A program made the translations under genes and the position numbers. The notes beneath the pieces were generated by a model. It worked only from the letters and a program-made list of their open reading frames with translations, was not told where the DNA came from and did no database searches. Source: Sulfuritalea sp. (GTDB taxonomy: Bacteria; Pseudomonadota; Gammaproteobacteria; Burkholderiales; Rhodocyclaceae). From it: a stretch of DNA of 64,000 nucleotides. Shown in pieces: positions 9,785 to 54,900 of this stretch. The stretch is from NCBI GenBank assembly GCA_016710465.1, contig JADJVS010000001.1, forward strand, positions 15,255 through 79,254. The letters run 5' to 3'. Numbering within the stretch: position 1 is the first letter of the stretch; each line of letters begins with the position of its first letter.

Positions 9785-9813
9785 TTGACCGCTCGGTCGG
9801 CCTATGTTAGCGT
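9785..9813 (+). promoter_or_regulatory. Putative promoter with embedded palindromic operator (upstream of the ligase)
   Basis: TTGACC - 17 nt - TAGCGT. Palindrome GACCGCTCGGTC spans 9787-9798. 26 of 31 nt match the element at 12334-12364. Confidence 0.5.
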
Positions 9814-9881
9814 GCCCGCATTGCCATCCGGGAGGCCGCCTCCCGGCAAATACACCACCGTTGCGCAATGGAGGAGACGAG

Positions 9882-17636: not shown

Positions 17637-18157
17637 GCTTCGGCTCCGGTAATGTCGATCCAGGCTGTATAGAGGGCCGCGCAGCCAAGAAGGAAGAAGG
17701 ATGGCACCATCGGCAGGTAGCCGTACCAGGTGGGCAGGTTAAGCAGCATCGAGGCATCGCCACTGTCGCGCAGATCGAGCATGCCCAGGGTGATGCGCCA
17801 GGCGAAGACGAAGCCGGCGACGGACAAGGCCAGGCTGGCGACGATATCGCAGGCGCGATTGAATTTCTTCGGCGCGTGGACGGTGAAGAAGTCTACGATG
17901 ATGTGGCCGCGGATCATCTGGCAGAAAGGCAACGCCATGGTCACGGCAACCGCCGACATCATCTGCACCAACTCGTAGTCGCCGAGGATCGGCGTGCTGA
18001 ACAGGCTGCGGCCGACAATGCTCGTCAAGGACATCAGGGACATCAGGATCAGCGTGATACCCGAGCCGACCGCGAAGGCGCGACAAACCTTGTTCAGCAC
18101 CCGGCCCACCAATGCGGTCGGCTCGGCATCCTTGTCGACATAGAGGGCGTCAGCCAT
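17633..18157 (-). CDS. dctQ: TRAP transporter small permease (DctQ family)
   Basis: Four TM segments. Start taken at the internal ATG (MADALYVD). Confidence 0.75.
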   Translation of the reverse strand: MADALYVDKDAEPTALVGRVLNKVCRAFAVGSGITLILMSLMSLTSIVGRSLFSTPILGDYELVQMMSAVAVTMALPFCQMIRGHIIVDFFTVHAPKKFNRACDIVASLALSVAGFVFAWRITLGMLDLRDSGDASMLLNLPTWYGYLPMVPSFFLLGCAALYTAWIDITGAEA

Positions 18158-18200
18158 CTTTTTCTCCTTGCGTTCCGTCCGCGACGCAGGTCGGGGACGG

Positions 18201-18238
18201 CAAAAAAACGCCGGGGCCGGCAGTGCCGGCACCCGGCG
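18201..18238 (-). terminator. Intra-operon intrinsic terminator/attenuator between dctP and dctQ
   Basis: Minus strand reads CCGCCGGGTGCCGGCACTGCCGGCCCCGGCG followed by TTTTTTT. Confidence 0.6.
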
Positions 18239-18252
18239 GTGCGTCGTGCTGC

Positions 18253-19284: not shown

Positions 19285-19505
19285 CTACGTCTCCTCTTTG
19301 ATGGCGGCGTCGCCGCCTTATTGAAATGACCGAACTCGCCCTAAAACCAGTGATACAAAAATCAATACACCTTATAGCATATCGAGAATTAATTCGCTAC
19401 AAAACAATCAGATAGATTGGATAGTGCAGTATAGTGCCTGTTACGATTTGCGATTTGAGCAAAATACTACACTAACCGCTCGGTGAATTGTTTGATTTCC
19501 AGCAA

Positions 19506-20825: not shown

Positions 20826-20842
20826 CCCTGCTCCCCCCTTGC

Positions 20843-22183: not shown

Positions 22184-22185
22184 GT

Positions 22186-23457
22186 TTATCTCCAGGTCAG
22201 CGACATGATTTCCCGGGCCGATTTCATCGGCTCGGCGAGGAAGTGTTCCCTGACCGGGCTCAGGTCGATGCGACGCAGGATCAACTGACTCATCACGCCG
22301 GCGTCGAAGAACTCATTGACGCCGTAGATGCCGGTCAGTCGGCCCTCGTGGAAAATCACCTTGAGGTAGCGGCCGCTGGCTTCATCGAAACGGGTGACCA
22401 CCTCGCCGCCCTCGGGCACCTTGCTGGAGCCAACCGATATCGCGTGGCGACCGAAGAAGTGGTAGGTATTCACCGGAATCCCGCCGGGGTAGTCCTTGAT
22501 GCCGGGGTCGCCGGCCATGGCCATGCCGGCGATGCGACCCTGCTCGGCGGCGTCGGGCAGGATCGCGTTCATCACCTTGGTGTCGGAATAGAAGCTCTTC
22601 GCCTGGGCGCAGTCGCCGGCGGCAAAGACGTTGGGCACGCTGGTCTGCATGCGCTCGCCGACCAGGATGCCCTTGTCGCGCTCGACGGCAGCGCCCTCGC
22701 CGGTGAGGAAGTCCATGTTGGGCCGCACGCCTGTCGCCACCAGCAGCAGGTCGGCTTCCAGGGTGGCGCCGCTTTCCAGCGTGATCGTGGCGCCCGGGGT
22801 GGCAAACGCGGAAGATGGCGCCAGCTTGACCACCCGGCTGCCGGTGAGGATGGTGGCGCCGTTGTCGGTGAAGGCCTTTTCGATCAGGGCGGCGGCCGTG
22901 GCATCGAAATAACCGTCGGTCAGTTGCTTGGCCATCTCGACAATGGTGACTTTGGCCCCGGCTTTGACCAGGTTCTCGGCGGCATGCATGCCGACCAGGC
23001 CGGCGCCCATCACCACCGCCTGCTTCGAGGCTTTCATGGCGGCATTCAGTTTGGTGGCGTCGTCCAGCGTGCGCAGCACGTGGTAGCTGACCTGGGCTAT
23101 GCCCGGAATCGGCGGGATCGCGGGCGAGGCGCCGGTGGCGAGGAGGATTTTTTCATAGGCGATCTGGCTGCCGTCGGCCAGTTCCGCCGTGTTGCGCGCC
23201 GGATGCAATGCCTTCAATGCCGTGCCCCGCCTGAGGCTGATCTGGTGCCGGGCGAAGAATTTCTCGTCGCGCAGGAAGACCGTGTCCGGCGCGGAACGGC
23301 CCGAGACGACGTAGGGCAGCACGGTGGGCGAGTAGGGCAGGTGCGCATCGCGCGTGAGCATCGTCAGGCTGCCGTCCGTGTCGTGCATGCGGATCGCGGT
23401 GAGGGCTTCGAGCGCGGCGTGGCTGCTGCCGACGACCAGGTATTTCGTGGTTTCCAT
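22186..23457 (-). CDS. FAD-dependent pyridine nucleotide-disulfide oxidoreductase subunit
   Basis: 'YLVVGSSHAALEA' and 'AVVMGAGLVGMHAAE' dinucleotide folds; 'VFAAGDCA'. Start taken at the internal ATG (METTKY). Confidence 0.8.
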   Translation of the reverse strand: METTKYLVVGSSHAALEALTAIRMHDTDGSLTMLTRDAHLPYSPTVLPYVVSGRSAPDTVFLRDEKFFARHQISLRRGTALKALHPARNTAELADGSQIAYEKILLATGASPAIPPIPGIAQVSYHVLRTLDDATKLNAAMKASKQAVVMGAGLVGMHAAENLVKAGAKVTIVEMAKQLTDGYFDATAAALIEKAFTDNGATILTGSRVVKLAPSSAFATPGATITLESGATLEADLLLVATGVRPNMDFLTGEGAAVERDKGILVGERMQTSVPNVFAAGDCAQAKSFYSDTKVMNAILPDAAEQGRIAGMAMAGDPGIKDYPGGIPVNTYHFFGRHAISVGSSKVPEGGEVVTRFDEASGRYLKVIFHEGRLTGIYGVNEFFDAGVMSQLILRRIDLSPVREHFLAEPMKSAREIMSLTWR

Positions 23458-23459
23458 GC

Positions 23460-24722
23460 TCAGTCCTTCTCGTTGAGCCAGACCGGCTCGGTGCTCATCG
23501 TGGCGCCGCCGAGCAGGGCTTCGGTGGCGTCGATCACGCGATGGAAATGCGCCGTGGTGATGTCGGCGCCGGCCAGGCCGCCAATGAAGCTTTGCGCGGG
23601 GAGCATTTTTCCGGTCGCCTGCCCCAGGCGGTAGAGCGCGCCCAGGGTCTCCTGGTACATGGGCCCGCAGTTCCAGCGAAAGCCCACCGAGCGATCGACC
23701 ACGCCCAGGGCCTGGATGTTCTTCAGCGACTTGATCAGCGCCTCGACGGGGAAGGGGCTGAAGGTCTTGAGCTTGATCAGGCCGACCCGTTTGCCGGCGT
23801 CGCGCGCCTCGTCGATGGCGTCCTTGCCGGCGCCGCTCATGCTGCCCAGGGTCATGATCGCGAACTCGGCATCCTCCATGCGGTAGTCCTCGACCAGCGG
23901 CGCGTAGCGGCGGCCGAAGCGTACTGCCCATTCCTCATGCACGTCCTCGATCACCCGCAGCGAATTCTGCATGCCCTTGCACTGCCCCTTGCGGTAGCGC
24001 ACAAAGGTCGACGGTCCCTTGCCGGACGAACCGCCGGTCAGCGGATCGACCGCCATCGGCCGCAGTGGGTCCAGCGCCACGTGCCAGTTCACGTTCTTGT
24101 CGCCCATGAAGGCATCGACCTCGGCCTGGTCGGGCAGCTCGACGCGCGAGGTGCCGTAGGAAAGATAGTTGCCGTCAAGGCAGACATTCACCGGCAGCAT
24201 CACGTCGTGATGCTCGGCGATCTTGAAGGCCATGATGGTGGTGTCGAGCACTTCCTGCACGGTCTCGCAATACACCTGCACCCAGCCCACTTCGCGCACG
24301 GTCATCGCGTCCTGGTGGCCGCCCCAGACCGACTGCGGGGTGATGCCGTCGCGGGTGACGATGGACATGACGATCGGCAGGCGCATGCCCGAGGTGCGGA
24401 AGTAGGGCTCGAACATGAAGGCCAGGCCCGGGCCGCAGGTCGCGGTGTAGGTGCGCGCGCCGGCCAGCGCCCCGCCTTGCAGCACGGAGAGCACCGAGTG
24501 CTCGCCCTCGGCATCGACGATGTCGGCATCCATCTTACCGTCGGCGATCAGCTTGGCGACATGCTCGACCAGCGAGGACTGCGGCGTGATCGGATACACC
24601 GCGACCATGTCCGGGCGGGCCAGGGCCACGCCCAGTGCGGCGGCCTCGTTGCCTTCGACGAGGATGACTTTCTGTTTGGCAGGCGCCGAACTGGGCGGTT
24701 TTTCCAATGTGCTGGTGCTCAT
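23460..24722 (-). CDS. 2-oxoacid:acceptor oxidoreductase alpha subunit
   Basis: 'VAVYPITPQSSLVEH', 'TATCGPGLAFMFE'. Confidence 0.88.
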   Translation of the reverse strand: MSTSTLEKPPSSAPAKQKVILVEGNEAAALGVALARPDMVAVYPITPQSSLVEHVAKLIADGKMDADIVDAEGEHSVLSVLQGGALAGARTYTATCGPGLAFMFEPYFRTSGMRLPIVMSIVTRDGITPQSVWGGHQDAMTVREVGWVQVYCETVQEVLDTTIMAFKIAEHHDVMLPVNVCLDGNYLSYGTSRVELPDQAEVDAFMGDKNVNWHVALDPLRPMAVDPLTGGSSGKGPSTFVRYRKGQCKGMQNSLRVIEDVHEEWAVRFGRRYAPLVEDYRMEDAEFAIMTLGSMSGAGKDAIDEARDAGKRVGLIKLKTFSPFPVEALIKSLKNIQALGVVDRSVGFRWNCGPMYQETLGALYRLGQATGKMLPAQSFIGGLAGADITTAHFHRVIDATEALLGGATMSTEPVWLNEKD

Positions 24723-31117: not shown

Positions 31118-32131
31118 ATGCCGCCGGAAGGGCAGAACCCAGCCCCGAAACCCATGCCCCGCATCGGAAAACAATTGAAAAGCCGACACCTCAGCCAGTG
31201 GATCGCCAACTTCCTCGACCGGCATCCGACACGTGCCAATTCCCTGATCATCACGGTCTACGGCGATTTCATCGCGCCGCATGGCGGCACGGTCTGGCTC
31301 GGCAGCTTCATCCGCCTGATGGAGCCGCTGGGCCTCAACGAGCGCATGGTGCGCACCAGCGTCTATCGCCTCTCCCAGGAGAAATGGCTGGTCTCGGAAC
31401 AGATCGGGCGCCGCAGCTATTACAGCCTCACCACCTCGGGCCGGCGCCGCTTCGAGCAGGCCTATCGGCGCATCTATTTCGCCCCCCAGGACACCTGGGG
31501 CGGAGAATGGCAGTTGGTGCTGATTCCCGGCTCGCTGGCCGGGGCGCCGCGAGATCAACTGCGCAAGGAACTCGCCTGGGCCGGCTACGGCGCGCTGGCC
31601 TCTGGCATTCTGGCCCATCCCTCGGCGGATACCGAAGCCTTGCTGGACATCCTTCAGGAAACCGGCGCCCATGACAAGGTGGTCGCCATGCGCGCGGCCA
31701 ACATCAGCGCGCTGACCAGCAAACCGCTGCAGGAACTGGTCCATGAATGCTGGAATCTCGACGTGCTCGCCGCCAAGTACACCGACTTCATCGAATGCTT
31801 CCGGCCGGTGCTGCGCACGCTTCGCGCGGCCGGCGATCTCGATCCCGAACAGTGCTTTCTGGTCCAGACCCTGCTGATGCACGACTTTCGCCGCGCCTTG
31901 CTGCATGACCCGCAGTTGCCCGTGCAACTCTTGCCCGTCAATTGGAGCGGCGGGGTGGCACGGCAGCTTTGCCGCGACATCTATTCCATCACCTGGCCTC
32001 ATGCCCAACGCCACCTGCTGGCGGTCTGCGAAACCGCGAGCGGTCCATTGCCGCCTCCGGCGACGTATTTCCTGGAGCGCTTTGGCGGTCTGGCAGTCGC
32101 GGGGGCCAGCCCGGCGCTGGCAACCGCATAG
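31118..32131 (+). CDS. paaX: PaaX family phenylacetyl-CoA-responsive transcriptional repressor
   Basis: 'SLIITVYGDFIAPHGGTVWLGSFIRLMEPLGLNERMVRTSVYRLSQEKWL'. The start could instead be 31154. Confidence 0.85.
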   Translation: MPPEGQNPAPKPMPRIGKQLKSRHLSQWIANFLDRHPTRANSLIITVYGDFIAPHGGTVWLGSFIRLMEPLGLNERMVRTSVYRLSQEKWLVSEQIGRRSYYSLTTSGRRRFEQAYRRIYFAPQDTWGGEWQLVLIPGSLAGAPRDQLRKELAWAGYGALASGILAHPSADTEALLDILQETGAHDKVVAMRAANISALTSKPLQELVHECWNLDVLAAKYTDFIECFRPVLRTLRAAGDLDPEQCFLVQTLLMHDFRRALLHDPQLPVQLLPVNWSGGVARQLCRDIYSITWPHAQRHLLAVCETASGPLPPPATYFLERFGGLAVAGASPALATA

Positions 32132-37108: not shown

Positions 37109-38929
<1,821 letters not shown>

Positions 38930-39184
38930 ACCTTCCGGACGTCATCGTCGGCCCATCGACGATAACCGCCGGCGCGGCCCACGCGGCCCCTTGAGCGGCC
39001 AGGCGCCACCGGGGTTTACGTGCGAGTCAACGCGATTCCGGGCGCCGCGCCATGCGATGCGCACAAGGGGTTTGGGCGCCATCCTGCGCTATGATAGGCT
39101 TTGACGCGCCCGGGCCAGCCGGCGGTATTTGCCCGGCGTCCGAGCGCGTTCCGTTTTCCGTTTCGATTTCACTGACGATTCGCC

Positions 39185-39673
39185 ATGAACGATACCGACG
39201 CAGGCTTGAGTTTCGATATTCCCGGAATCCAGAAATGCCAGCAGAATCGCTATCCGCTGCTGTTCGTCGACCGCATCACCGATCTCATACCGGGAAAGCG
39301 GGCGCGCGGCATCAAAACCTTCACCTATAACGAGTGGTTTTTCCCGGCGCACTTCGCGGACGAGCCCACGGTTCCCGGATTCATCATGGTCGAATGCCTG
39401 GTGCAGACCTTCATCATGATCTTTCTGTCCAGGCCGGAATACCAGGGCATGAAGACCGCGTTCTCGAATATCAGCGACTTTCAGTTCAAGCGCAAGATCG
39501 TGCCCGGCGAGTCCCTCGATATCCTGGCGATTCTGGATTCCTTCAATCGCGGCGTGGCGAAGGGCCGCGCGACGGGTCACGTGGCGGGAGAACTGGCCTG
39601 CGCCGGCGAGTTCGTGATCGCGGTGCCTGACGTCCTGAAACAGTTCACACCACGCCCCCCCACCTCGTCCTGA
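39185..39673 (+). CDS. FabZ/FabA-like hotdog dehydratase
   Basis: 'NRYPLLFVDRITDL', 'FFPAHFADEPTVPGFIMVECLVQ' (catalytic His and Glu positions retained). Confidence 0.75.
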   Translation: MNDTDAGLSFDIPGIQKCQQNRYPLLFVDRITDLIPGKRARGIKTFTYNEWFFPAHFADEPTVPGFIMVECLVQTFIMIFLSRPEYQGMKTAFSNISDFQFKRKIVPGESLDILAILDSFNRGVAKGRATGHVAGELACAGEFVIAVPDVLKQFTPRPPTSS

Positions 39674-39688
39674 GCTTTCCAGACGTCC

Positions 39689-41473
39689 ATGCCCAGGGTT
39701 GCCGACTATGTGATGGAAAGACTCCAGGCGCAAGGCGTGCGCCATGTCTTTCTGGTCAGCGGCCGGGGCGCCTTGTTCCTGACGGATGCCGTTGCCAGGC
39801 TCAAGACCATGTCGGCGGTATGCATGCACCACGAGCAATCCGCCGCCTTCGCCGCCGCTGCGTATGCCCAGCATTCGGGAGGCCCTGGCGTCTGTCTGGT
39901 GTCGACAGGCTGCGCCGCGACCAATACCCTGACGGGAGTTCTGTCGGCATGGCAGGACGGTCTGCCCTGCATCTTCATCTCCGGCCAAAACACCCTGGCC
40001 GAGACCACGCGATACACGGGAAAAGCCCTGCGTACCTTCGGCCAGCAAGAGGCAGACATCGTAAGCATCGTTGCGTCCATCACCAAATACGCGGTGATGA
40101 TCACCGATCCGGCAAGCATTGCCCATGAGCTCGACAAGGCACTGTTTCTGGCCATGTCGGGGAGACCCGGCCCGGTATGGATAGACATCCCTCTTGACAT
40201 CCAGAGCATGCGCGTTGTCCCCGAGGAACTCGCGCGCTTCGTACCTGATGCGAATTTGCCGGGCCAGCCCTCGGCCGAGGATGTGTGCCAGGTTGCCGCG
40301 GCGCTGCGCGACGCGAAGCGTCCGGTGCTGTTGCTGGGAAGCGGCATGCGCAGCGCGAAGGCGGTCGATGCGCTGCGGGACTTCCTCGCGAGCAATCCAG
40401 TTCCCGTCACCTACGCGGCCTCGGCACCCGACGTCATCGATGCTGGCGATCCGCTGCTGATCGGGTCGGTGGGAGCGATGGGCTGTTCCCGGGCGGGCAA
40501 TTTCGCTGTCCAGAACGCCGACCTGGTGCTGGTGGTGGGGTGCCGGCTCTCATCCATGGTGACCGGAACGGATTTCGCGAAGTTTGCACGGGCCGCCAGG
40601 ATCATCGTCGTCGACATCGATCCGGCGGAACATGCAAAGGACGGCGTGCGGATCGACAGGCTCGTCGTCGCCGACGCCAGGCAGTTTCTACTGGCGCTGA
40701 CGCAAGCCGCGGCCATCGGCGACACCAGCGCCTGGCGCCTGAAGTGCCAGCACTGGAAGACAGTTTTTCCACGCCACGAGGCACGTCAGGGAAGCACGGA
40801 GCGAGTCGACCTCCATCATCTCGCCGATTGCCTTTCCCGCGTGCTGCCCGCCGACGCCTCGCTGGTCACCGACTCTGGTTTTGCCGAAATCATCCTGCCG
40901 ACCAATGTCGGATTTTCCAGGGGGCAGCGCTGCATCCACCCGGTATCGCAAGGTGCCATGGGATTCGCGCTGCCGGCGATCGTTGGCGTACACTTTTCCG
41001 GCGACCACCCGATCGTCGCCGTCGTCGGTGACGGTTCGGTGATGATGAACCTGCAGGAGCTGCAGACCATACGGCATCACAATATTCCGGCGAAGATCCT
41101 GATCATCAGCAACAATGCCTACGGCATCATCCGCCGGCGCCAGACCGACCTGTTCCGCTCGCGCACCATAGGAACGGACTCGAGCAACGGCGTAAGCTGC
41201 CCGGATTTCCGCGAGGTGGCGAAGTCCTTCGCACTGCCCTATGCACGCATAGAGCGCGCCGAAGAGCTTGAGCCAAGGCTGCGAGATATCCTCATGGCGG
41301 ATGGGGCGATAATCTGCGAAATTCTTGGCCTGGAGAATCAGGACTACATCGAGACAAGCCTCGCCAGGAATTCGGCGGGCCGCCTGGTGCGCCGCCCCCT
41401 GGAAGATCAAGCTCCGTTTCTGGACCGGACGACATTCCTGGCCGAAATGATCGTCGAACCCATCGACCAATAG
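39689..41473 (+). CDS. Thiamine diphosphate-dependent enzyme (acetolactate synthase large-subunit-like)
   Basis: N-terminal Pyr domain 'HEQSAAFAAAAYA', C-terminal 'VVGDGSVMMNLQELQT...ISNNAYGI' ThDP motif. Confidence 0.8.
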   Translation: MPRVADYVMERLQAQGVRHVFLVSGRGALFLTDAVARLKTMSAVCMHHEQSAAFAAAAYAQHSGGPGVCLVSTGCAATNTLTGVLSAWQDGLPCIFISGQNTLAETTRYTGKALRTFGQQEADIVSIVASITKYAVMITDPASIAHELDKALFLAMSGRPGPVWIDIPLDIQSMRVVPEELARFVPDANLPGQPSAEDVCQVAAALRDAKRPVLLLGSGMRSAKAVDALRDFLASNPVPVTYAASAPDVIDAGDPLLIGSVGAMGCSRAGNFAVQNADLVLVVGCRLSSMVTGTDFAKFARAARIIVVDIDPAEHAKDGVRIDRLVVADARQFLLALTQAAAIGDTSAWRLKCQHWKTVFPRHEARQGSTERVDLHHLADCLSRVLPADASLVTDSGFAEIILPTNVGFSRGQRCIHPVSQGAMGFALPAIVGVHFSGDHPIVAVVGDGSVMMNLQELQTIRHHNIPAKILIISNNAYGIIRRRQTDLFRSRTIGTDSSNGVSCPDFREVAKSFALPYARIERAEELEPRLRDILMADGAIICEILGLENQDYIETSLARNSAGRLVRRPLEDQAPFLDRTTFLAEMIVEPIDQ

Positions 41474-41508
41474 ACCCACCGGCCCCACTACCAAGCGCAG
41501 GCAACGTC

Positions 41509-42543
41509 ATGGCCACCATCAAGTTACGCAACGGCATCGAGCTTTCCGATTTCGGCAAGCCCTATTTCGTTGCCGAGCTGAACACCAGCCATTTCGGTGA
41601 TCTCGAAACCGCCAGGCAAATGATCGTGCGGGCTAGGGAAGTCGGTTGCGATTGCGTGAAGTTCCAGTCGTGGTCCACGCAAAGCCTGTATTCCAAATCC
41701 TTCTACGACGCCAATCCCGTCGCCCGCCGCATGGTCGGCAAGTTCGCCCTGGCGGAGGACAGCCTGCGCGACCTGGCCCGGTTTGCCAAGTCGGCCGGAA
41801 TTGCGTTCGCATCGACGCCCTACTCGCGCGAGGAGGTCGAATTCCTGATCGAGCAGTGCGACGTCCCCTTCATCAAGGTCGCCTCGATGGAGTTGAACAA
41901 CCTCCCCTTCCTGGACTTCATTGCCCGCACGGGAACACCGATGGTGCTGTCCACCGGCATGGGTGAACTCGGCGAGATTCGCGCGGCTGTCGAAACCATT
42001 GCCAATGCGGGAAACCGGAATCTGTGCGTACTTCACTGCGTTTCGACCTATCCCGCCGCCGCCCCGGCGATCCGCCTCAATAATATCCTTGGCCTGCGCG
42101 ACGAATTTCCAGAGTATCCGATCGGCTATTCGGACCATTCTCTCGGTCTGGAGTGTGCCGCCGCGTCCGTCGCGCTTGGCGCCTGCCTGATCGAGAAGCA
42201 CTTCACCCTCGACCACAACAAGCTCGGCATGGACAACCAAATGGCAACCGAACCGGCGGAAATGATGGCCCTGGTCCAGGCGTGCCGGAATGTGCATGAG
42301 GCCATGGGCAGCCGCGAACGTATCCTTCCCCCGGAGGAATACGAGCAGCGATTGAAGATGCGACGCAGCATCATCGCCGCGCGCGAATTGAAACAGGGCA
42401 CCCGGATCACCCCGGCCGATCTGGACGCAAAGCGCCCCGGCTCGGGCCTGCCGCCAACCGCGATGGCGACATTGATCGGGAAGGTGGTTATTCGCGGCAT
42501 CGAAGCGGACACCCTGATCCGGGAGTGCGATGTTTCAGATTGA
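41509..42543 (+). CDS. NeuB-family (N-acetylneuraminate / nonulosonate synthase-like) PEP-condensing enzyme
   Basis: 'YFVAELNTSHFGDLETARQMI', 'DCVKFQ', 'IKVASMEL', 'GYSDHSLG', C-terminal SAF-like domain. Confidence 0.8.
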   Translation: MATIKLRNGIELSDFGKPYFVAELNTSHFGDLETARQMIVRAREVGCDCVKFQSWSTQSLYSKSFYDANPVARRMVGKFALAEDSLRDLARFAKSAGIAFASTPYSREEVEFLIEQCDVPFIKVASMELNNLPFLDFIARTGTPMVLSTGMGELGEIRAAVETIANAGNRNLCVLHCVSTYPAAAPAIRLNNILGLRDEFPEYPIGYSDHSLGLECAAASVALGACLIEKHFTLDHNKLGMDNQMATEPAEMMALVQACRNVHEAMGSRERILPPEEYEQRLKMRRSIIAARELKQGTRITPADLDAKRPGSGLPPTAMATLIGKVVIRGIEADTLIRECDVSD

Positions 42544-42624
42544 AGCGACGAGTGGCATCCCGCTAGCGAGAGAACCGAGCGCAACGCGGAAAACATGCCA
42601 GGTCCTGGATAGCGGAGCGCGCCC

Positions 42625-43284
42625 GTGAGTTCGCTGTTCGTCTACTGCGCCGGCGGCTATGGCAAGGAAGTGATCGAAGTCGCGCGGCGCTACAACTCGC
42701 TTCACGGGTGCTGGGAAGCCATCCATTTTCTCGATGACGTGTGCACCGAACCAGCCCGCCACGAGGCGAGGATCTTCGCCTTCGACGATGCCTGCGAGCA
42801 CATCGGGAAGCACGGCGGCGAAGTGGTGATCGCCTCGGGAGAGCCCAGCCTTCGCGCTACGCTGAGGATGAAATTGCAGCAACGCGGGCTGCGGCTCGGC
42901 CGCCTGGTCGACGCAACATCGATCGTCAGCCAGCCCGAAAGCCTGAGCGAAGGCGTCGTGATATCGCAGCATTGTTCGGTTTCGCGCGATGCCAGGCTGG
43001 GATGCAATGTTTCCGTCAATGCGATGTCCATCGTCGGCCATGATGTCGTGGTCGGCGATGATTCGGTCATCTCCTCGATGGTCAATATCGGCGGAAAAAC
43101 CGTGATCGGCCGCAGCACCTATATCGGGATGGGTGCCTTGATCAAGGACCAGGTGCGAATCGGCGAAGGCGTCATCGTCGGGATGGGCTCGGTGGTGTTC
43201 AACGACCTGCCGGACAACGTCATCGCCCTGGGCAATCCCGCAAGGCCGATGCGCCCCAACCTGGAACAACGAGTCTTTAAATGA
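42625..43284 (+). CDS. NeuD/PglD-type hexapeptide-repeat acyltransferase
   Basis: GTG start. N-terminal 'FVYCAGGYGKEVIEVAR' followed by a left-handed beta-helix repeat region. Confidence 0.75.
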   Translation: MSSLFVYCAGGYGKEVIEVARRYNSLHGCWEAIHFLDDVCTEPARHEARIFAFDDACEHIGKHGGEVVIASGEPSLRATLRMKLQQRGLRLGRLVDATSIVSQPESLSEGVVISQHCSVSRDARLGCNVSVNAMSIVGHDVVVGDDSVISSMVNIGGKTVIGRSTYIGMGALIKDQVRIGEGVIVGMGSVVFNDLPDNVIALGNPARPMRPNLEQRVFK

Positions 43285-43541
43285 ACGGAGGCAGCGTGAG
43301 CAACAAGGAAAAATATGACGATATCTTCATCGAGTGCTTCGGCCTTGCGCCCGACCAGCTCGGCGACAAGCTGGCCTACCGCAGCGTTCAGGCCTGGGAT
43401 TCGGCGGGGCACATGGGGATGATCGCGGCGATCGAGGAGGCCTTCGGCATCATGCTGGAAACCGACGACATCATCGAGTTCAGTTCCTACAACGTCGGCA
43501 TCGAGATACTGCGCAAATACGGGGTCGACCTGTCGACATGA
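43281..43541 (+). CDS. Acyl carrier protein
   Basis: 86 aa with 'WDSAGHMGMIAAIEEAFGI' (Ser attachment motif). ATGA-coupled on both sides. Confidence 0.7.
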   Translation: MNGGSVSNKEKYDDIFIECFGLAPDQLGDKLAYRSVQAWDSAGHMGMIAAIEEAFGIMLETDDIIEFSSYNVGIEILRKYGVDLST

Positions 43542-44962
43542 CGCTCCTCGGCGCAAGCGGGCCCGCTGGGCTGGCGGTCCTTCCGGAGGAAGGATGCTGC
43601 CTGTCGCACGGGGAACTCGGTGCCGAAGTCAGGGCACTGGCGGCGAAGTTCCCGCCGCCGGGCCTGCTGTTCTGCCTGTGCCACAACGACTTGCCAACGC
43701 TGCTTTGCTACCTTGCCTGCCTCGACCGCGCGGTGGTACCACTGCTGCTGCCCGGAGGCATCGACAAGGCAAGGCTCGCCGGCCTGCTGGAGGCCTATAG
43801 GCCCAACTATGTGTTTCATAAACGGGACGACCTCGCCGGGATTTCCGCCCAGACCATTCTGCATTGCGGCGAATACGGACTGTATCGAACGGGCGACGAC
43901 ATCCGGCACGTACTGCACCCGGATCTCGCGCTACTGCTGACCACCTCGGGATCGACCGGGTCGCGCAAGCTGGTTCGAATTTCCAGGCGAAACCTGCTGG
44001 CCAATGCCGATTCGATCATCGACTACCTGGGCATCGAGGCTGGCGAGCGAGCAATTACCACGCTCCCCATCCACTACTCCTACGGCTTGTCGGTCATCAA
44101 CAGCCACCTCAGGGGCGGCGCCGCATTGCTGCTCAGCGACCGATCGATCATGGAGCGCCAGCTTTGGGCCCAGATCCAGCGCGACGGGGCAACGAGTCTC
44201 GCCGGTGTTCCCTATACCTACGACATGCTGCTCAAGCTGGGTATCGAACGGCTCAAGATGCCTGCAATGAGAACCTTCACCCAGGCGGGCGGACGACTGG
44301 CCCCGGAACGGATCCGGCGCGTTGCCGAATCCTGTGGTGCGCGCGGCATGCGCTTCTATACGATGTATGGCCAGACCGAAGCCACGGCGCGGATCGCCTA
44401 TCTGCCCTGGCAGGAAACCCTCGCCCGGGCCGGCAGCATCGGTCGGCCCATTCCGGGCGGAGCGCTTTGGCTGGAAGACCCGCAGGGCCTGCGGATCACG
44501 CAAGCCGGATGCACCGGCGAACTGATCTATTCCGGCCCCAATGTGTGCCTTGGATATGCCACTTCGCACCGGAACCTCGCCCTCGGCGACCAGAACCATG
44601 GCATTTTGCGGACCGGCGACCTGGCGATCATCGATGACTACGGCTATTTCACGCTGGTAGGCCGTGCCAGCCGATTCGTGAAGATTTTCGGCAACCGGAT
44701 TGCTCTGGACGAAGTCGAATCCTTGCTCCACGAACAAGGTCTCAGCGCCACGGTCACCGGCACCGACGAGCGGCTCGACGTGCATCTTGAAGGGCAGCTC
44801 CCTGACTACGACCTGCAGACCCGCCTCGCCGCAACTCTGGGCGTCAATCCCACCGCAATCGCGGTCAGGGCCCTGCCCAGCATCCCCAGGCTGGAGAGCG
44901 GGAAGATCGATTATGCTTCCCTTGCCGGGATTTTGAGCCCACGCGATGTCGATGCGCACTGA
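43538..44962 (+). CDS. Acyl-AMP ligase (AMP-dependent synthetase) predicted to load the ACP
   Basis: 'LLLTTSGSTGSRKLV', 'YGQTEAT', 'LRTGDL'. Start taken at the internal ATG. Confidence 0.8.
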   Translation: MTLLGASGPAGLAVLPEEGCCLSHGELGAEVRALAAKFPPPGLLFCLCHNDLPTLLCYLACLDRAVVPLLLPGGIDKARLAGLLEAYRPNYVFHKRDDLAGISAQTILHCGEYGLYRTGDDIRHVLHPDLALLLTTSGSTGSRKLVRISRRNLLANADSIIDYLGIEAGERAITTLPIHYSYGLSVINSHLRGGAALLLSDRSIMERQLWAQIQRDGATSLAGVPYTYDMLLKLGIERLKMPAMRTFTQAGGRLAPERIRRVAESCGARGMRFYTMYGQTEATARIAYLPWQETLARAGSIGRPIPGGALWLEDPQGLRITQAGCTGELIYSGPNVCLGYATSHRNLALGDQNHGILRTGDLAIIDDYGYFTLVGRASRFVKIFGNRIALDEVESLLHEQGLSATVTGTDERLDVHLEGQLPDYDLQTRLAATLGVNPTAIAVRALPSIPRLESGKIDYASLAGILSPRDVDAH

Positions 44963-46058
44963 TCCTGTCGGCGATCCCTCGCCGCGTTCTCTACCCAGTC
45001 CTGGACATCCCTACGCCCTGCACCGCGCGGCCAAACAAGAGGCGCTGGTTCCCGAACTGAATCGCCTGACCCGGCTGCACTACGCCGGCTGCGCCGAGTA
45101 TCGCCGCCTGGTCGACGTGCTCCACGGCGGCCCGCGCCAGGTCGATCGTTGCGAAGACTTTCCCTACCTGCCGGTACGCCTGTTCAAGCACTATGAGCTG
45201 CGCAGCGTGCCTGAAGCGGACCTGGTCAGGACGCTGAGTTCTTCCGGCACCTCGGGACAGGCGGTTTCACGCATCCACCTCGACAAGGATACGGCGGCCA
45301 GACAGACCCGCGCATTGACCGAGATCGCGGGAAGTTTCATCGGCAGCCGGCGCCTGCCCATGCTGATCGTCGACTGCCCGGCGACGCTTGCCAACCGTGC
45401 CGGCTTTTCGGCGCGGACCGCCGGCATCCTCGGCTTTTCGATCTTCGGACGCAATCCCACCCATGCCCTCGACGACGACATGCAGATCGACTCCGGGGCG
45501 ATCGAAGCCTTCCTCGCCCGCCACGGCGAGGGGCCAGTTCTGGTTTTTGGCTTTACCGCAGTCGTCTGGCAGCATTTCGTGCTTGCCCTTGCAGCACGCG
45601 GAGCCAGCCTTTCGATTCCCGGCGGCATCCTGATTCACGGTGGTGGCTGGAAGAAGCTCGCTTCCGCCGCGGTATCGCCAGACGAATTCAAATCGCGCCT
45701 GCGGCGGTTGACCGGGATCGCCAGGGTCCACAATTACTACGGCATGGTCGAGCAGACCGGATCCATCTTCATGGAATGCGAACACGGCTTTCTCCACGCC
45801 TCGGATTATTCCGAGGTGATCATCCGCGACCCGCTGGATTTCAAGGTCGTCGCTCCCGGCGTGCCGGGCCTGATTCAACTGCTGTCGGTACTACCGCACA
45901 GCTATCCGGGGCATTCGATATTGACGGAGGACACTGGAACAATGGTCGGCGTGGACGACTGCCCATGCGGCCGCCAGGGAGCACGCTTTCAGGTGCATGG
46001 GCGGCTCAAGGATGCCGAAACCCGGGGTTGCAGCGATGTCGATCACCATCCCGCCTGA
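44946..46058 (+). CDS. LuxE-family acyl-protein synthetase
   Basis: 'FPYLPVRLFKHYELRSVP', 'SSSGTSGQAVSRIHLD', 'HNYYGMVEQTG'. Confidence 0.75.
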   Translation: MSMRTDPVGDPSPRSLPSPGHPYALHRAAKQEALVPELNRLTRLHYAGCAEYRRLVDVLHGGPRQVDRCEDFPYLPVRLFKHYELRSVPEADLVRTLSSSGTSGQAVSRIHLDKDTAARQTRALTEIAGSFIGSRRLPMLIVDCPATLANRAGFSARTAGILGFSIFGRNPTHALDDDMQIDSGAIEAFLARHGEGPVLVFGFTAVVWQHFVLALAARGASLSIPGGILIHGGGWKKLASAAVSPDEFKSRLRRLTGIARVHNYYGMVEQTGSIFMECEHGFLHASDYSEVIIRDPLDFKVVAPGVPGLIQLLSVLPHSYPGHSILTEDTGTMVGVDDCPCGRQGARFQVHGRLKDAETRGCSDVDHHPA

Positions 46059-47253
46059 GCTTGCGCTTTCCATGCGCTTTCCGCTGGGAAGCGCGGACGA
46101 TATTGCGCCGGCGCCCGAGCCGGTGTTTTCGCCTTTGCGGGTCGAATTTCTCGCCGGCCTGTCAAAGGCCTTGTTCGCCGATGCCTCCGCCAAAAGCCAC
46201 CCCGATGTCGCCGCATTCGCTTTTTGGTGTCGTCGCGCGAACATCGAAACCTGGGCCTCCAGACATCGCCCGAGTGGCCTGCGCATCGGTCTGGGTCCGG
46301 TCTTCCACGTTGCCCCCGCCAATGTGCCGATCAATTTCGCCTACTCGCTGGCGTTCGCGTTTCTCGCCGGAAACACAAGCATCGTCCGCCTGCCCTCCCG
46401 GCATGGCGAGCAGATCGATCTCGTGATCCGGGCGTTGCAGGAAGTGCTCGCGGAGCCGCGGTTTGCCACGCTGCGTTCGGCCATTCATCTGCTTCGCTAC
46501 GAGCACGACGATCGCATCACCGAGTTCTGGCTGCAAAACACCCTGGGGCGGATCATCTGGGGTGGCGACGCCACGGTCGCGCACATGCGCGGCCTGAGGG
46601 CGCATCCGCGTTCCCGCGAGATCGCGTTTTCCGACCGATACTCGTTTTGTGTCGTGAATGCCGCCGCCATTCTGGCGGCCGACGCGGGTGCCTTGTCCGA
46701 TCTGTACCTCAGGTTCGCCAACGACATGTATCTGATGGACCAGCATGCCTGTTCCTCGCCCCACATGCTCGCCTGGATCGGCGAAGCAGGCGAAGTCGAC
46801 GATGCCAGGCGCCTGTTCTGGCCCGGCTTCGAGTTGCTGGCACAATCAAGATACGAACCGGAACCGATACAGGTCATGGACAAGTACGTGGACACCTGCC
46901 GCGAGATCATCGACTCGCCCACTGTCGATGCCGTCGTCTTGCGGCATCCCGCGCTCACGCGCATCCGCCTGTGCTCCCTGACCAACGACCTGTATCGGCG
47001 GCGCGGGTATTTCGGCACGCTGCACGAACTGTCCCTCCCCTCCCTTTCGAATATCGCGGCAGGCATAGACCCGCGCTGCCAGACGATGACCTATTTCGGT
47101 TTCGATGCCGAGGAACTGAGAAGCTTCGTTGTCGACCAGCGCCTGCTCGGCCTGGACAGAATCGTGCCGATCGGCAAGGCCCACGACATGGGCTATTCCT
47201 GGGATGGCTTCGATCTCATCGGCGCCCTGTCGCGCGTGGTCGAAATAAATTAG
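46036..47253 (+). CDS. LuxC-family acyl-CoA/acyl-protein reductase (aldehyde-forming)
   Basis: 'HVAPANVPINFAYSLAFAFLAGNTSIVRLPS', 'MDQHACSSP'. Overlaps luxE by 23 nt. Confidence 0.75.
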   Translation: MSITIPPELALSMRFPLGSADDIAPAPEPVFSPLRVEFLAGLSKALFADASAKSHPDVAAFAFWCRRANIETWASRHRPSGLRIGLGPVFHVAPANVPINFAYSLAFAFLAGNTSIVRLPSRHGEQIDLVIRALQEVLAEPRFATLRSAIHLLRYEHDDRITEFWLQNTLGRIIWGGDATVAHMRGLRAHPRSREIAFSDRYSFCVVNAAAILAADAGALSDLYLRFANDMYLMDQHACSSPHMLAWIGEAGEVDDARRLFWPGFELLAQSRYEPEPIQVMDKYVDTCREIIDSPTVDAVVLRHPALTRIRLCSLTNDLYRRRGYFGTLHELSLPSLSNIAAGIDPRCQTMTYFGFDAEELRSFVVDQRLLGLDRIVPIGKAHDMGYSWDGFDLIGALSRVVEIN

Positions 47254-47359: not shown

Positions 47360-47863
47360 TCAGCCAAGCGCCTTCAGCGCCGCGTCGTAATCCGGCTCCT
47401 GCGCGATCTCGGGCACCATCTGGCTGTGCACTACCTTGTCATTCTCGTCGAGCACGACCACCGCGCGCACGGTCAGGCCGACCATCGGCCCTTCGGCGAA
47501 GGCCACGCCCCAGTCCTTCATGAACTCGGGATGGCGGAAGGTCGAAAGGTGCGCGACGTTGGCCAGTCCCTCCATGTCGCAGAAGCGCTTGGCGGCAAAC
47601 GGCAGGTCGCCCGAAACACACAGCACCACGGTATTGGCCAGGCTGCCGGCGGCCTCGTTGAACTTGCGCGTGGATTTGGCGCAGGTCGGCGTGTCGATGC
47701 TGGGATAGATGTTGAGCACCTTGCGCTTGCCGGCAAAGTCCTTGAGACCAACATCGGCCAGCGTGCCGCTGGTCAAGGTCATAGCCGGGGCCTTGGCGCC
47801 GACACCGGGAAAATCGCCGTCGACGCGAACCGGATTGCCGCGCAGGGTGATGGTTGTACTCAT
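47360..47863 (-). CDS. tpx: Thiol peroxidase
   Basis: '[10 protein letters not shown]' peroxidatic Cys, '[16 protein letters not shown]'. Confidence 0.92.
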
Positions 47864-52502: not shown

Positions 52503-53714
52503 TTAGTGAGCAGCCCATTGCACGGAGTTCAAATCAACGCCGTCCTTGTACATTTCCCACAGCGGCGACAGATCGCGCAGCTTGCCCAGCTTGTCGTGCA
52601 ACAGCTTGATCGTGAAATCGATTTCCTCTTCGGTAGTGAAGCGGCCGAGGGTGAAGCGGATCGAGCTGTGCGCCAGTTCGTCCGAACGTCCCAGCGAGCG
52701 CAGCACATAGGACGGCTCCAGGCTGGCCGAGGTGCAGGCCGAACCGGAGGACACCGCGATGTCCTTGATCGCCATGATCAGCGACTCGCCCTCGACGAAG
52801 TTGAAACTGACATTGAGGTTGTGCGGCACACGCTGCTCGATGTCGCCATTGACGTAGGTTTCCTCGATATCCATGAGGCCCCTGAGCAATTTGTCGCGCA
52901 GCATGCGGATGCGCTCATTCTCGGTAGCCATTTCCTCGCGCGCAAGACGGAAAGACTCGCCCATGCCGATGATCTGGTGCGTCGCCAGGGTGCCCGAACG
53001 CATGCCGCGCTCGTGGCCGCCGCCATGCATCTGAGCTTCCAGCCGGACGCGCGGTTTGCGCCTGACGTAGAGCGCGCCAATACCCTTGGGACCATAGGTC
53101 TTGTGCGCGCAGAAGGACATCAGGTCGACCTTCAGCTTGGACAGGTCGATCGGCATCTTGCCCGTGGCCTGCGCCGCATCGACGTGGAAGATCACGCCCT
53201 TTTCGCGACAGATCTCGCCGATTTCGGCGATCGGCTGGATCACGCCTATCTCGTTGTTCACTGCCATCACCGATGCCACGACGGTATCCGGGCGCAGCGC
53301 TGCCTTGAACTGCTCGACAGTGATCAGCCCGTTTTCCTGCGGCGTCAGGTAGGTCGCCTCGAAGCCCTGGCGTTCCAGTTCCTTGACCGTATCGAGCACG
53401 GCCTTGTGTTCGGTGGACACCGTGATGATGTGCTTGCCCTTGGTGCCGGCGTAGAAGTGCGCCGCACCCTTGATGGCGAGGTTGTTCGATTCGGTGGCGC
53501 CCGAGGTCCAGATGATTTCCTTGGCATCGGCGCCGACCAGCGCCGCGACCTGCTCGCGCGCCTCCTCGACGGCCTTCTCGGCGTCCCAGCCATAGACATG
53601 GGAGCGCGAGGCCGGGTTGCCGAAATGCTCGGTCAACCAGGGAATCATCTTCGCCGCCACGCGCGGATCAACCGGGGTGGTGGCCGAGTAGTCGAGATAC
53701 ACCGGCAGTTTCAT
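52503..53714 (-). CDS. iscS: Cysteine desulfurase IscS
   Basis: '[19 protein letters not shown]', PLP-Lys '[10 protein letters not shown]', active-site 'SSGSACTS'. Confidence 0.93.
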
Positions 53715-53742
53715 GCCTGAATCCATTGACGATTTCTCCAGT

Positions 53743-54900
53743 TCAGCGAACAAGGGCCGTCAGACCCCTGAGTTGCAGGATTGTAGTGTTCAAGGCGCCC
53801 AGAAAATCACGCACCTGAACAAGGGTATTGTCCGCACCAAGGCTGACGCGCACCGCGGCACGCGCCAGTTCCGGCGCCACGCCCATCGCCAGCAGCACAT
53901 GCGAGGGCTCTGGATTGGCGCTGGAACATGCGGCACCGGCGGCGACCGCGAAACCGGCACGGTCAAGCTTGCCGACCAGGGTTTCGCCGTCGACGCCATC
54001 GAAGGCAAAGTAGCAGGTATTCGGCAAACGCTCGGCACCGGCGGAAAAGATCGTCGCGCATTGCGCCAGCAGGCCGGATTCCAGTTCCGTCCGTAGCGCC
54101 GACAACTCGCTTATCCGCCGGTCGAGTCGCGATGCCGCGAGTTCGGCGGCGATCCCGAAACCAACGATCGCCGCGACATTCTCGGTACCGGAACGCATGC
54201 CGCGTTCATGCCCGCCCCCGGCGATCAGCGCTTGCAGCTCGACGCGCTTGTCAAGCACCAGCGCCCCGGCGCCCTTGGGCCCGCCCAGCTTGTGGGCCGA
54301 GAGCGTCATGGCATGCACGCCGGCGGCATTGAGCGCGCGGAAATCAAGCCTCATGCGACCGCAGGCCTGTACCGCATCGGTATGGAACCATGCCCGCGCC
54401 GAGGCGGCCCGCGCCGCCAGCCCGGCCACGTCCTGCACCGCGCCGGTTTCGTTATTGGCCAGCATCACCGATACCAGGGCCGGCTTGTCGGCAAGTGCTG
54501 CTTGAAAGTCGGCGCCGGCGACACGGCAATTGTCATCCACTTCGACTTCGCGCAGCCGCCAACCTGACTGTCGCAAAGCCTTTGCCGGCTCGCGCACGCA
54601 GGGGTGCTCAATGGCGGAGATCGCGATCGTGCCCGGCGACAGGCAGGCGGCCGCGCCCTTGATGAACAGGTTGTTGGCCTCCGAACCCCCGCTGGTGAAC
54701 ACCACCTCGGTGGGATGCGCTCCCACGGCGTGGGCCACGCGCTGCCTCGCCTCGTCGATCGCCCGCCGCGCCGCGCGCCCATAGTCGTGGCGGCTGGATG
54801 CGTTGCCGAACCTCGCATCGAGGTAGGGCAGCATCGCCTCACGCGCCCGCGCATCGAGGGGCGTGGTCGCGTTGTGATCGAAATAGACGGGGGCAAACAT
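53743..54900 (-). CDS. Second, NifS-like class V cysteine desulfurase
   Basis: '[12 protein letters not shown]', '[12 protein letters not shown]', 'AAGAACSS'. No IscS-type C-terminal tail. Confidence 0.8.
54504..54527. repeat. Dispersed 24-nt repeat copy 3 (inside the NifS-like CDS)
   Basis: GAAAGTCGGCGCCGGCGACACGGC is identical to 14443-14466. It encodes 'CRVAGADF' on the minus strand. Confidence 0.7.

Follow-up and report, generated by a model that had tools for sequence, protein, structure and literature searches.

An eight-gene cluster in a 64,000-nucleotide stretch of Sulfuritalea sp. contig JADJVS010000001.1 (the whole stretch is called the window, and positions are counted from its first nucleotide) carries a cassette whose genes recur together across bacteria. 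In our preferred reading, to which we assign a probability of about one half, this cassette is a self-contained, horizontally mobile side-chain factory that would build an acyl group from an aldehyde and phosphoenolpyruvate (PEP) and put it on an amino sugar of a surface glycan. Seven genes recur together in at least ten phyla: those for an acyl carrier protein (ACP), an AMP-ligase, LuxE- and LuxC-like proteins, a FabZ-like protein, a thiamine diphosphate (ThDP) enzyme and a dedicated NeuB paralogue. In the window, the cluster spans positions 39185-47253 and consists of eight co-directional plus-strand open reading frames (ORFs), abutting or overlapping, flanked by typA and tpx (Table 1). An earlier sequence-only reading of this DNA had described eight plus-strand genes with overlapping or near-abutting boundaries between these two housekeeping genes; every ORF lies where it had been placed, and Pfam, NCBIfam and PDB searches, from which the family calls for the window proteins are taken, returned all eight families as it had named them.

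Recurrence, gene order and variants of the cassette

A scan for a NeuB-paralogue pattern in a species-representative genome collection (one genome per species) returned 348 matching stretches, and relatives of the window NeuB homologue at 58-75% identity number more than 100 and come from very different phyla. The best 80 of the 348 stretches and four others were searched by tblastn with the eight window proteins, and counts given below out of 84 refer to these loci. ACP, ligase, LuxE, LuxC and the NeuB paralogue occur together in 64 of the 84, most of the others being cut by contig ends; the arrangement is therefore not due to chance, and the conservation of the gene neighborhood, which the sequence-only reading had put forward as a check, is borne out. 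The loci come from alpha-, beta-, gamma-, delta- and epsilonproteobacteria and from Firmicutes, Bacteroidota, Spirochaetota, Melainabacteria, Nitrospira, Elusimicrobiota, Verrucomicrobia and Margulisbacteria. No NeuB with more than 40% identity to the cassette clade was found among the PLSDB plasmids.

Gene order is organized around two rigid blocks, FabZ-ThDP-NeuB and ligase-LuxE-LuxC, with the ACP gene in front of either. Within the first block, the ThDP gene is followed by the NeuB paralogue in 69 of the 84 loci and the FabZ-like gene by the ThDP gene in 62; within the second, LuxE is followed by LuxC in 65 loci and the ligase by LuxE in 50. The ACP gene precedes the FabZ-like gene in 41 loci and the ligase in 27. 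LuxE and LuxC are fused into a single protein of ∼770 aa in three unrelated loci (L027, L066:4068-6335 and L085:15180-17498). Catalytic residues are conserved in every family of the cassette.

The ThDP and FabZ-like genes are jointly absent from nine loci, all from gut Firmicutes or Bacteroidota. Each of the nine has a short-chain dehydrogenase/reductase (SDR) gene in the cassette, mostly directly upstream of NeuB. This joint loss in the presence of an SDR indicates that the ThDP and FabZ-like genes constitute one exchangeable sub-module. Locus L078, where the C-terminus of the ThDP enzyme lies at the contig edge, was not counted as ThDP-less.

The eighth function, that of a predicted acyltransferase, is nearly always present and is supplied by non-orthologous genes. 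For contexts, all neighboring ORFs were clustered and the recurrent clusters annotated; among the 58 loci of at least 16 kb (the long loci), at least 50 have an acyltransferase candidate, usually touching the cassette. Outside the window, the slot is occupied by GNAT proteins, by other left-handed beta-helix (LbH) proteins, or by proteins of ∼250 or ∼345 aa (clusters u18 and u20, with no Pfam match), and it is our guess that the latter two act as acyltransferases.

Several loci carry additional genes. In L067, L069, L009, L046 and L090 (4324-5481), the ThDP gene is preceded by a tandem array of two or three FabZ-like paralogues, and two ACPs are encoded in L028 and L037. By sequence inspection, a lactate/malate-dehydrogenase-like protein (∼320 aa) follows LuxC in several loci (L038, L040, L079), and a type II thioesterase-like protein with a GYSMGS motif lies between the ligase and LuxE in L046, L059, L076 and L079.

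Table 1. Genes of the window cassette and its boundary markers
Feature	Position	Strand	Basis
FabZ-like hot-dog dehydratase (first of the FabZ-ThDP-NeuB block)	39185..39673	+	PF07977 6.8e-17
ThDP enzyme, AHAS/YerE superfamily, JanthE-like	39689..41473	+	TPP_enzyme_N/M/C domains
NeuB paralogue (NeuB + SAF), predicted PEP:aldehyde condensing enzyme	41509..42543	+	PF03102 7.5e-74, PF08666 3.6e-12
NeuD/PglB/VioB-family (PglD-like) left-handed beta-helix acyltransferase	42625..43284	+	TIGR03570; PglD_N (PF17836) + Hexapep (PF00132)
Small acyl carrier protein, 86 aa	43281..43541	+	Orthologue profile vs PDB ACPs
ANL-superfamily AMP-binding ligase, predicted ACP-loading enzyme	43538..44962	+	PF00501 1.9e-39
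LuxE-like acyl-protein synthetase	44946..46058	+	PF04443 2.2e-48
LuxC-like acyl-thioester reductase, predicted aldehyde-forming	46036..47253	+	PF05893 1.2e-23; start possibly 45997
typA/bipA (left boundary marker, outside the cassette)	37109..38929	+	TIGR01394 955.8 bits, above cut-off
tpx thiol peroxidase (right boundary marker, outside the cassette; convergent)	47360..47863	-	NF001808 233 bits, above cut-off

The NeuB paralogue

The NeuB paralogue of the window scores below the cut-offs of both the NeuB equivalog TIGR03569 (297.4 vs 399.65) and the PseI equivalog TIGR03586 (247.3 vs 340.25). The cassette clade comprises 73 sequences with a pairwise identity of 46-100% (median 55%). Their identity is 29-37% to NmNeuB and to a co-located NeuB-domain paralogue in L009, and 19-27% to the NeuB-cupin fusion of L057; they are monophyletic with respect to all three. 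Against these sequences the cassette paralogue is a distinct clade, which goes part of the way to the phylogenetic placement that the sequence-only reading had called for. Eighteen positions are clade-specific, including the changes from EIGxNH to ELNTSH and from KxQTH to KFQSW.

The active site, in turn, is preserved. We compared the paralogue with the metal-, PEP- and aldehyde-site residues of NmNeuB, which we take to be those of the 1XUZ literature. In an alignment to 1XUU, equivalents of E25, K53, Q55, T110, K129, S132, E134, S154, Y186, S213, H215, H236, D247 and R314 are all present, and the sole mismatch is a Ser in place of N184. Most of these residues are invariant across 35 members of the clade. 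A loss of NeuB catalytic residues, which the sequence-only reading had named as a refuting observation, was therefore not found.

Three observations argue that this enzyme does not make nonulosonates: canonical NeuB, NeuC and NeuA genes occur alongside it in L004 and L087, a ThDP gene nearly always adjoins it, and a CMP-transferase is rarely nearby. Genes for CTP_transf_3 (the CMP-transferase) occur near the cassette in 3 of the 84 loci and those for Epimerase_2 (the hydrolysing 2-epimerase) in 2, and a scan of 30 of the larger remaining ORFs of the window revealed neither a hydrolysing 2-epimerase nor a CMP-nonulosonate synthetase. We infer from the gene content that the paralogue would condense PEP with the product of LuxC, the sole aldehyde that the cassette can be predicted to make.

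The ThDP enzyme

The best PDB match of the ThDP enzyme is JanthE (8RPH; E 5e-113, 37% identity, 382 bits), with acetohydroxyacid synthase (AHAS) following at 1.6e-66; plant AHAS scores 228 bits and PpYerE (5AHK) only 221. The catalytic Glu is present in 67 of 67 orthologues, and the GDG...NN motif is largely invariant (G in 65/67, D in 67/67, N in 62/67). JanthE has CDG where the cassette enzymes have GDG. Two closer identifications were considered and rejected. A branched-chain amino-acid acetolactate synthase is incompatible with best scores far below the cut-offs of the AHAS equivalogs (338 vs 738 and 335 vs 538), and the operon contains no ilvN-like gene. JanthE itself is not an orthologue: all cassette ThDP enzymes, those of Oxalobacteraceae among them, share only 31-37% identity with it, and its locus lacks the cassette.

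The 2-oxo acids accepted by JanthE, a YerE-like carboligase, include 4-hydroxy-2-oxovalerate, and the related ErwE prefers 4-hydroxy-2-oxo acids and couples the donor to a CDP-4-keto sugar (PMC12188165, PMC12247030, PMC9306805). The published account calls the physiological substrates of JanthE unidentified. In its locus in Janthinobacterium sp. HH01 (L088:6805-17306), the JanthE gene has CDP-sugar genes on one side (for an NTP-transferase, a 4,6-dehydratase and an E1-type dehydrase) and, on the other, genes for reductase(s), an acylating aldehyde dehydrogenase like DmpF, a 4-hydroxy-2-oxovalerate aldolase like DmpG and a glycosyltransferase. By analogy, this erwiniose-type layout predicts 4-hydroxy-2-oxovalerate as the donor and a CDP-3,6-dideoxy-4-keto sugar as the acceptor.

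Two Rhodocyclaceae metagenome-assembled genomes (MAGs) encode a NeuB-SAF-cupin fusion and a second JanthE-like ThDP enzyme just upstream of the cassette (L057:1079-4709 and L032:34-4729). Alongside this second pair lie genes for an E1-type (His) DegT dehydrase, a sugar C-methyltransferase and a NUDIX protein. The pair is an independent instance of the coupling between a NeuB-like and a ThDP enzyme, and the arrangement resembles a branching pathway of the YerE type, with a NeuB-like enzyme in the role of the pyruvate aldolase.

The predicted acyl-handling proteins

The FabZ-like protein finds FabZ proteins as its top PDB matches (E 1.7e-21) and falls below the FabZ equivalog cut-offs (102.2 vs 113 and 96.7 vs 155). 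Its catalytic pair is conserved, His56 in 64 and Glu70 in 65 of 66 orthologues. A housekeeping FabZ was rejected on the basis of these cut-offs and of the context, which is the cassette and not lpxD-fabZ-lpxA. The acyltransferase passes the TIGR03570 cut-off (166.3 vs 160.8) and is 76% identical to its counterpart in L003.

The window ACP has no Pfam match (no PP-binding) and only a weak AmcB match; the L090 orthologue has a weak Pfam PP-binding match, and a profile of the orthologues matches PDB ACPs (2LML, E 3.3e-5). Ser41, the attachment site, lies in a WDSxGHM / WDS(V/I)GHM motif and is present in 35 of 35 orthologues. The ACP gene overlaps each of its neighbors by 4 bp. The start of the ligase is most likely the ATG at 43538, which overlaps the ACP stop codon, and not the listed 43334, the first in-frame start of the long ORF. 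The TSGSTG P-loop of the ligase is invariant among orthologues. The conserved Arg314 equivalent of the NeuB paralogue and a TIGR01733 match of the ligase at 6e-41 raised the idea of an amino-acid starter, with the ligase as an amino-acid adenylating enzyme on the way to an N-acetyl-amino aldehyde like ManNAc. By-eye alignment, which is weak evidence, makes this unlikely: the A4 position is a Ser in an 'IHYSYG' motif of the acyl-CoA-synthetase type, not the Asp that binds the alpha-amino group.

LuxE retains the cysteine of the C-terminal RGCSD motif in 56 of 56 orthologues, and LuxC its catalytic Cys in DQxACSSP in 61 of 61. Bioluminescence lux genes are ruled out by curated cut-offs and context. 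The rfbKLMNO tetronate genes of Vibrio cholerae O1 constitute a similar ACP/ligase/LuxE/LuxC cassette.

Genomic contexts of the cassette

Recognisable glycan genes occur in 48 of the 58 long loci, and most cassette contexts correspond to nucleoside diphosphate (NDP)-6-deoxy-hexosamine pathways. In 42 of the 84 loci, the cassette has a DegT aminotransferase in its vicinity. The catalytic lysine is kept in 39 of the 42 aligned DegT homologues, which are therefore aminotransferases and not E1-type dehydrases; only 3 of the 42 are E1-type. Other recurrent neighbors are SDRs, acyltransferases of the GNAT, hexapeptide and PglD-like types, FabH-like enzymes, nucleotidyltransferases, NDP-sugar dehydratases and epimerases, and sugar C- and O-methyltransferases.

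Nonulosonate genes accompany the cassette in few loci only (L004, L087 and L009). In a Paenibacillus locus, the cassette follows canonical NeuB, NeuC and NeuA, and in a Treponema-type MAG (L087) it stands inside a Leg/Pse-type locus with a PseB-like dehydratase, an aminotransferase, NeuC, PglD and NeuB. Two further Treponema-type MAGs, L084 and L085, carry the cassette, as does a Verrucomicrobia MAG, in which it lies among a flippase, glycosyltransferases and dTDP-sugar genes.

These contexts bear on the two proposals of the sequence-only reading, each of which survives in part. The first, an accessory module for an N-acylated nonulosonic acid, was right about a role in glycans, which the glycan genes and acyltransferase candidates of the long loci support, and too narrow about the acceptor, given the prevalence of NDP-6-deoxy-hexosamine pathways. 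The second, in which an aldehyde is extended with PEP to a 4-hydroxy-2-oxo acid that passes to the ThDP enzyme and to dehydration, gives the best account of the internal chemistry, in view of the occurrence of the paralogue beside canonical NeuB, its adjacency to the ThDP gene and the rarity of CMP-transferases; its supposition that the pathway is independent of sugars finds no general support.

Proposed pathway and alternatives

In the side-chain factory that we favor, LuxE would adenylate a short carboxylic acid and pass the acyl group to LuxC, which would reduce the thioester to an aldehyde. The NeuB paralogue would condense this aldehyde with PEP to give a 4-hydroxy-2-oxo acid three carbons longer. 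The JanthE/YerE-like ThDP enzyme would then decarboxylate the 2-oxo acid, the resulting 3-hydroxyacyl unit would reach the ACP, and the FabZ-like enzyme would dehydrate it there. In the variant cassettes that have neither ThDP nor FabZ-like genes, the SDR adjoining NeuB would presumably reduce the 2-oxo group instead. The AMP-ligase is predicted to load a carboxylic intermediate onto the ACP, and the NeuD/PglD-like transferase would pass the finished acyl group from the ACP onto the nitrogen of a nucleotide-linked amino sugar, which in the window organism would be made elsewhere in the genome. The exact order of these steps is tentative, and we consider it appreciably less probable than the reading as a whole.

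A bolder version of this chemistry would be a hitherto undescribed non-Claisen carrier-protein route to short functionalised acyl chains, in which PEP extension of a non-sugar aldehyde by the NeuB paralogue is followed by ThDP and FabZ-like steps to a 3-hydroxy- or enoyl-ACP, from which the acyl group passes to the amino sugar. One option within it is dehydration to a 2-oxo-3-enoate and internal-redox decarboxylation by the ThDP enzyme, giving an acyl-ThDP that would acylate the ACP. We regard this route as unlikely.

Several points weigh against the side-chain factory. For every member of the cassette, the substrates and the order of the steps are read from sequence. JanthE, the closest solved relative of the ThDP enzyme, is a non-orthologue at 37% identity to the window enzyme. 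Non-oxidative decarboxylation by a ThDP enzyme would remove the sole carboxylate and leave the acid loaded by the ligase unexplained; a loaded acid would presuppose that the starter is dicarboxylic, that a carboligation joins the unit to a 2-oxo acid, or that a thioester arises by an oxidative or internal-redox route. The donor of the acyltransferase might be plain acetyl-CoA. Finally, the sequence-only reading had entertained the case that the cassette is always embedded in complete nonulosonate or O-antigen loci, and this is not so: the window, L001-3 and L090 contain no glycan genes within 10 kb, which leaves room for a non-sugar acceptor in this organism.

That last point leads to a sugar-independent small molecule in this organism: either a hydroxy or oxo acid, free or bound to the carrier, or an amine with an N-acyl group, for example a signal, a lipid head group or a conjugate of a polyamine or an amino acid. 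Housekeeping genes flank the operon and the 64-kb window lacks glycan genes, L001-3 and L090 are alike in this respect, and an operon with its own acyltransferase could be complete in itself. We nevertheless consider this explanation quite improbable, since across taxa the cassette lies overwhelmingly in glycan loci and its acyltransferase scores above the cut-off of the NeuD/PglB/VioB sugar N-acyltransferase family. The window operon also has no exporter, regulator or tailoring gene of the kind typical of metabolite clusters, and surface-glycan genes are often scattered in genomes. A sugar acceptor would be retained if the ThDP enzyme, as in erwiniose and caryophyllose biosynthesis, ligated the decarboxylated NeuB product onto a nucleotide-linked 4-keto-6-deoxy sugar to give a long acyl-branched sugar; the ACP, ligase, FabZ-like protein and LuxE/LuxC would then only make the aldehyde, and the acyltransferase would merely N-acetylate. 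Such C-branching is unlikely on balance. Its attraction lies in the proximity of the ThDP enzyme to JanthE, a YerE-like, ketone-accepting carboligase whose locus is an erwiniose-type sugar cluster, in the NTP-transferase and 4,6-dehydratase genes that many cassette loci encode as a potential source of a 4-keto sugar, and in the NeuB-like/ThDP pair that occurs in a true E1-dehydrase context in L057 and L032. The cassettes themselves, however, are accompanied by aminotransferases with only the three E1-type exceptions, have no conserved YerF-like side-chain reductase, and invest two activating enzymes and an ACP in what would be mere aldehyde making. The ThDP-less variant, which keeps ACP, ligase, LuxE/LuxC, NeuB and acyltransferase, fits acyl transfer and not branching, and no sugar genes were found in the window.

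Least probable by far is an ordinary nonulosonate synthase in an operon that makes an N-acyl nonulosonic acid, with the remaining genes supplying only the N-acyl group. The intact catalytic residues of NeuB, including the Arg314 equivalent, would be expected of such an enzyme, as would the position of the cassette inside the Leg/Pse-type locus L087 and next to NeuB/NeuC/NeuA in L004. Yet a canonical NeuB is already present in both of these loci, the cassette NeuB belongs to a clade of its own and stays under the NeuB and PseI cut-offs, and most loci are without the hydrolysing 2-epimerase and the CMP-transferase. A near-obligate neighbor that uses 2-oxo acids, the ThDP enzyme, would moreover make little sense for a CMP-activated sugar.

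Operon structure, origin and surroundings in the window

The first three gene junctions of the cluster are gaps (15, 35 and 81 bp, in order) and the last four are overlaps (4, 4, 17 and 23-62 bp); judged from these, the cluster looks like a single operon. Promoter and terminator matches showed no excess over shuffled expectation, and an Rfam search gave no matches. The lower GC content that the sequence-only reading had estimated by eye is confirmed by computation: 62.2% in the cluster vs 64.4% in the rest of the window, the lowest value among 224 sliding 8-kb windows. Mean GC at third codon positions (GC3) is 0.76 in the cluster vs 0.82 (Mann-Whitney p=0.005). The dip is real and modest.

A metagenomic relative (L001-3) shares the typA ... 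tpx-isc synteny and has in addition an FkbM-type methyltransferase. In L001 (6513-7613), this FkbM-type (Methyltransf_21) gene lies between typA and the FabZ-like gene; the corresponding 256-bp spacer of the window (38930-39184) contains no remnant of it. When the window is compared with L003, identity is 86-97% for flanking proteins (typA 95%, tpx 90%) but 55-78% for cassette proteins. This contrast, together with the dip in GC3, suggests that an ancestor acquired the cassette, which was followed either by the fast divergence typical of surface-glycan genes or by replacement at the same site. In L089, the closest relative with a usable flank (75% NeuB identity), a same-strand gene for a TPR-repeat protein (7384-8046) follows LuxC in place of tpx; the cassette therefore occupies different chromosomal sites even among fairly close relatives.

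The sequence-only reading had listed the sugar partners missing from the segment, and their absence extends to the whole window. A scan of 30 of the larger remaining ORFs found no sugar-nucleotide, glycosyltransferase or flippase gene; these ORFs belong to restriction-modification (R-M), a TRAP transporter, aromatic/acyl-CoA metabolism, a molybdoenzyme, the isc operon, mutS and similar functions. The left end (236-5125) encodes a DUF3800 protein, a YhcG-type PDDEXK nuclease and a type I R-M methylase (HsdM) and is a probable defence or mobile island. Genes for the TRAP transporter (DctPQM), for a PaaK-like ligase, for a TPP/4Fe-4S oxidoreductase subunit and for a pyridine-nucleotide-disulphide oxidoreductase are grouped at 16320-23931. 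Taken with PaaX (31118-32131) and another PaaK-like ligase gene (9804-11219), they point to an organism that degrades aromatic acids, and judged from this gene content the host is probably a Rhodocyclales-type betaproteobacterium. A tandem pair of class-V aminotransferase (IscS/NifS-like) genes lies upstream of the isc operon at 52503-54900.

Significance

Unusual N-acyl and C-branched decorations of O-antigens, capsules and flagellin shape serotype, phage and immune recognition, and motility, and for most unusual glycan side chains the responsible genes are still to be found. Carriers of the cassette include gut Firmicutes, Treponema, Helicobacter, rhizobia and Nitrospira. If the side-chain factory is correct, the sialic-acid synthase fold gains a second job, the PEP-dependent extension of non-sugar aldehydes, and the JanthE/YerE class, which is of biocatalytic interest, gains new natural donor substrates. 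Should the non-Claisen route apply, it would add a new NeuB function and a new type of ThDP reaction to glycan decoration in hundreds of species. The cassette could also supply the missing genetics of glycans such as the trihydroxyhexanoyl-nonulosonate of Treponema flagella.

Comparison with known systems

Parts of the cassette have precedents. The ligase-LuxE-LuxC-ACP block is already known bioinformatically from flagellin glycosylation islands (PMC7874193, PMC4875605), and the logic that leads from an aldehyde through a 2-oxo acid to a ThDP enzyme is known from erwiniose. Literature searches turned up the simpler ACP-ligase-LuxE-LuxC islands alone, and a paper describing the full cassette was not among the results; the new combination, of which no description was found, consists of the dedicated NeuB clade, the fixed FabZ-ThDP-NeuB block and the association with N-acyl transfer.

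The cassette shares with the Lux fatty-acid reductase (LuxC, LuxD, LuxE) the C-terminal cysteine of LuxE and the catalytic Cys of LuxC, encoded by adjacent or fused genes. It differs in that the operon lacks luxA, luxB and luxD and in that its proteins score far under the Lux equivalog cut-offs (50.4 vs 550 and 21 vs 750); the substrate is presumably a short polar acid and not myristate. Another parallel is found in the flagellin islands of Aeromonas and Enterobacteriaceae, whose ACP/ligase/LuxE/LuxC cassettes (with or without FabG) are thought to supply a non-acetyl acyl decoration; the papers speculate on a 'liposugar', and the chemistry of the islands is unproven (PMC7874193, PMC4875605). 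These islands have the same ligase-LuxE-LuxC-ACP block with adjoining transferases but, as described, lack a fixed block of NeuB paralogue, ThDP enzyme and FabZ-like gene.

A product that may correspond to such a pathway is found on Treponema denticola flagellin, where, according to the part of PMC13439194 that cites Kurniyati 2017, a Pse/Leg-type nonulosonic acid bears an N-(2-methoxy-4,5,6-trihydroxyhexanoyl) group. The carbon skeleton of this acyl group is that of a reduced, O-methylated 2-keto-3-deoxyhexonate, as expected from condensation of glyceraldehyde with PEP by a NeuB-type enzyme, reduction of the 2-oxo group and O-methylation, and it matches the genes that an SDR-type cassette with an added methyltransferase would provide. 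Treponema-type MAGs do carry the cassette in such a setting, as in the Leg/Pse-type locus of L087. The Treponema NeuB-paralogue query returned no named T. denticola protein among its matches, and the connection between the cassette and this glycan is a lead.

With NeuB, PseI and LegI, the cassette paralogue shares the fold, the pairing of NeuB and SAF domains and the residues of the metal, PEP and aldehyde sites. It is set apart as a separate clade whose partner is a ThDP enzyme rather than NeuA/NeuC.

The nearest relative in pathway logic is the erwiniose pathway, with its acylating aldehyde dehydrogenase ErwJ, pyruvate aldolase ErwI and ThDP enzyme ErwE (PMC9306805). The sequence-only reading knew of no described pathway resembling its second proposal; erwiniose provides one, built from non-homologous parts (PMC9306805). 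In erwiniose/caryophyllose-type pathways, as proposed for the cassette, a thioester is converted to an aldehyde and then to a 4-hydroxy-2-oxo acid extended by three carbons, which serves as the donor for a ThDP enzyme of the AHAS superfamily. The components of the first two steps differ. The aldehyde maker of the cassette is LuxE/LuxC, non-homologous to the DmpF-type enzyme, and its predicted C3-adding enzyme is a PEP-dependent NeuB paralogue, non-homologous to the pyruvate aldolase. The cassette also brings an ACP, a ligase, a FabZ-like dehydratase and an acyltransferase but no YerF-type reductase; the window encodes neither such a reductase nor an E1-type dehydrase. Across the loci, it associates with aminotransferases instead of the E1 3-dehydrases of erwiniose-type clusters.

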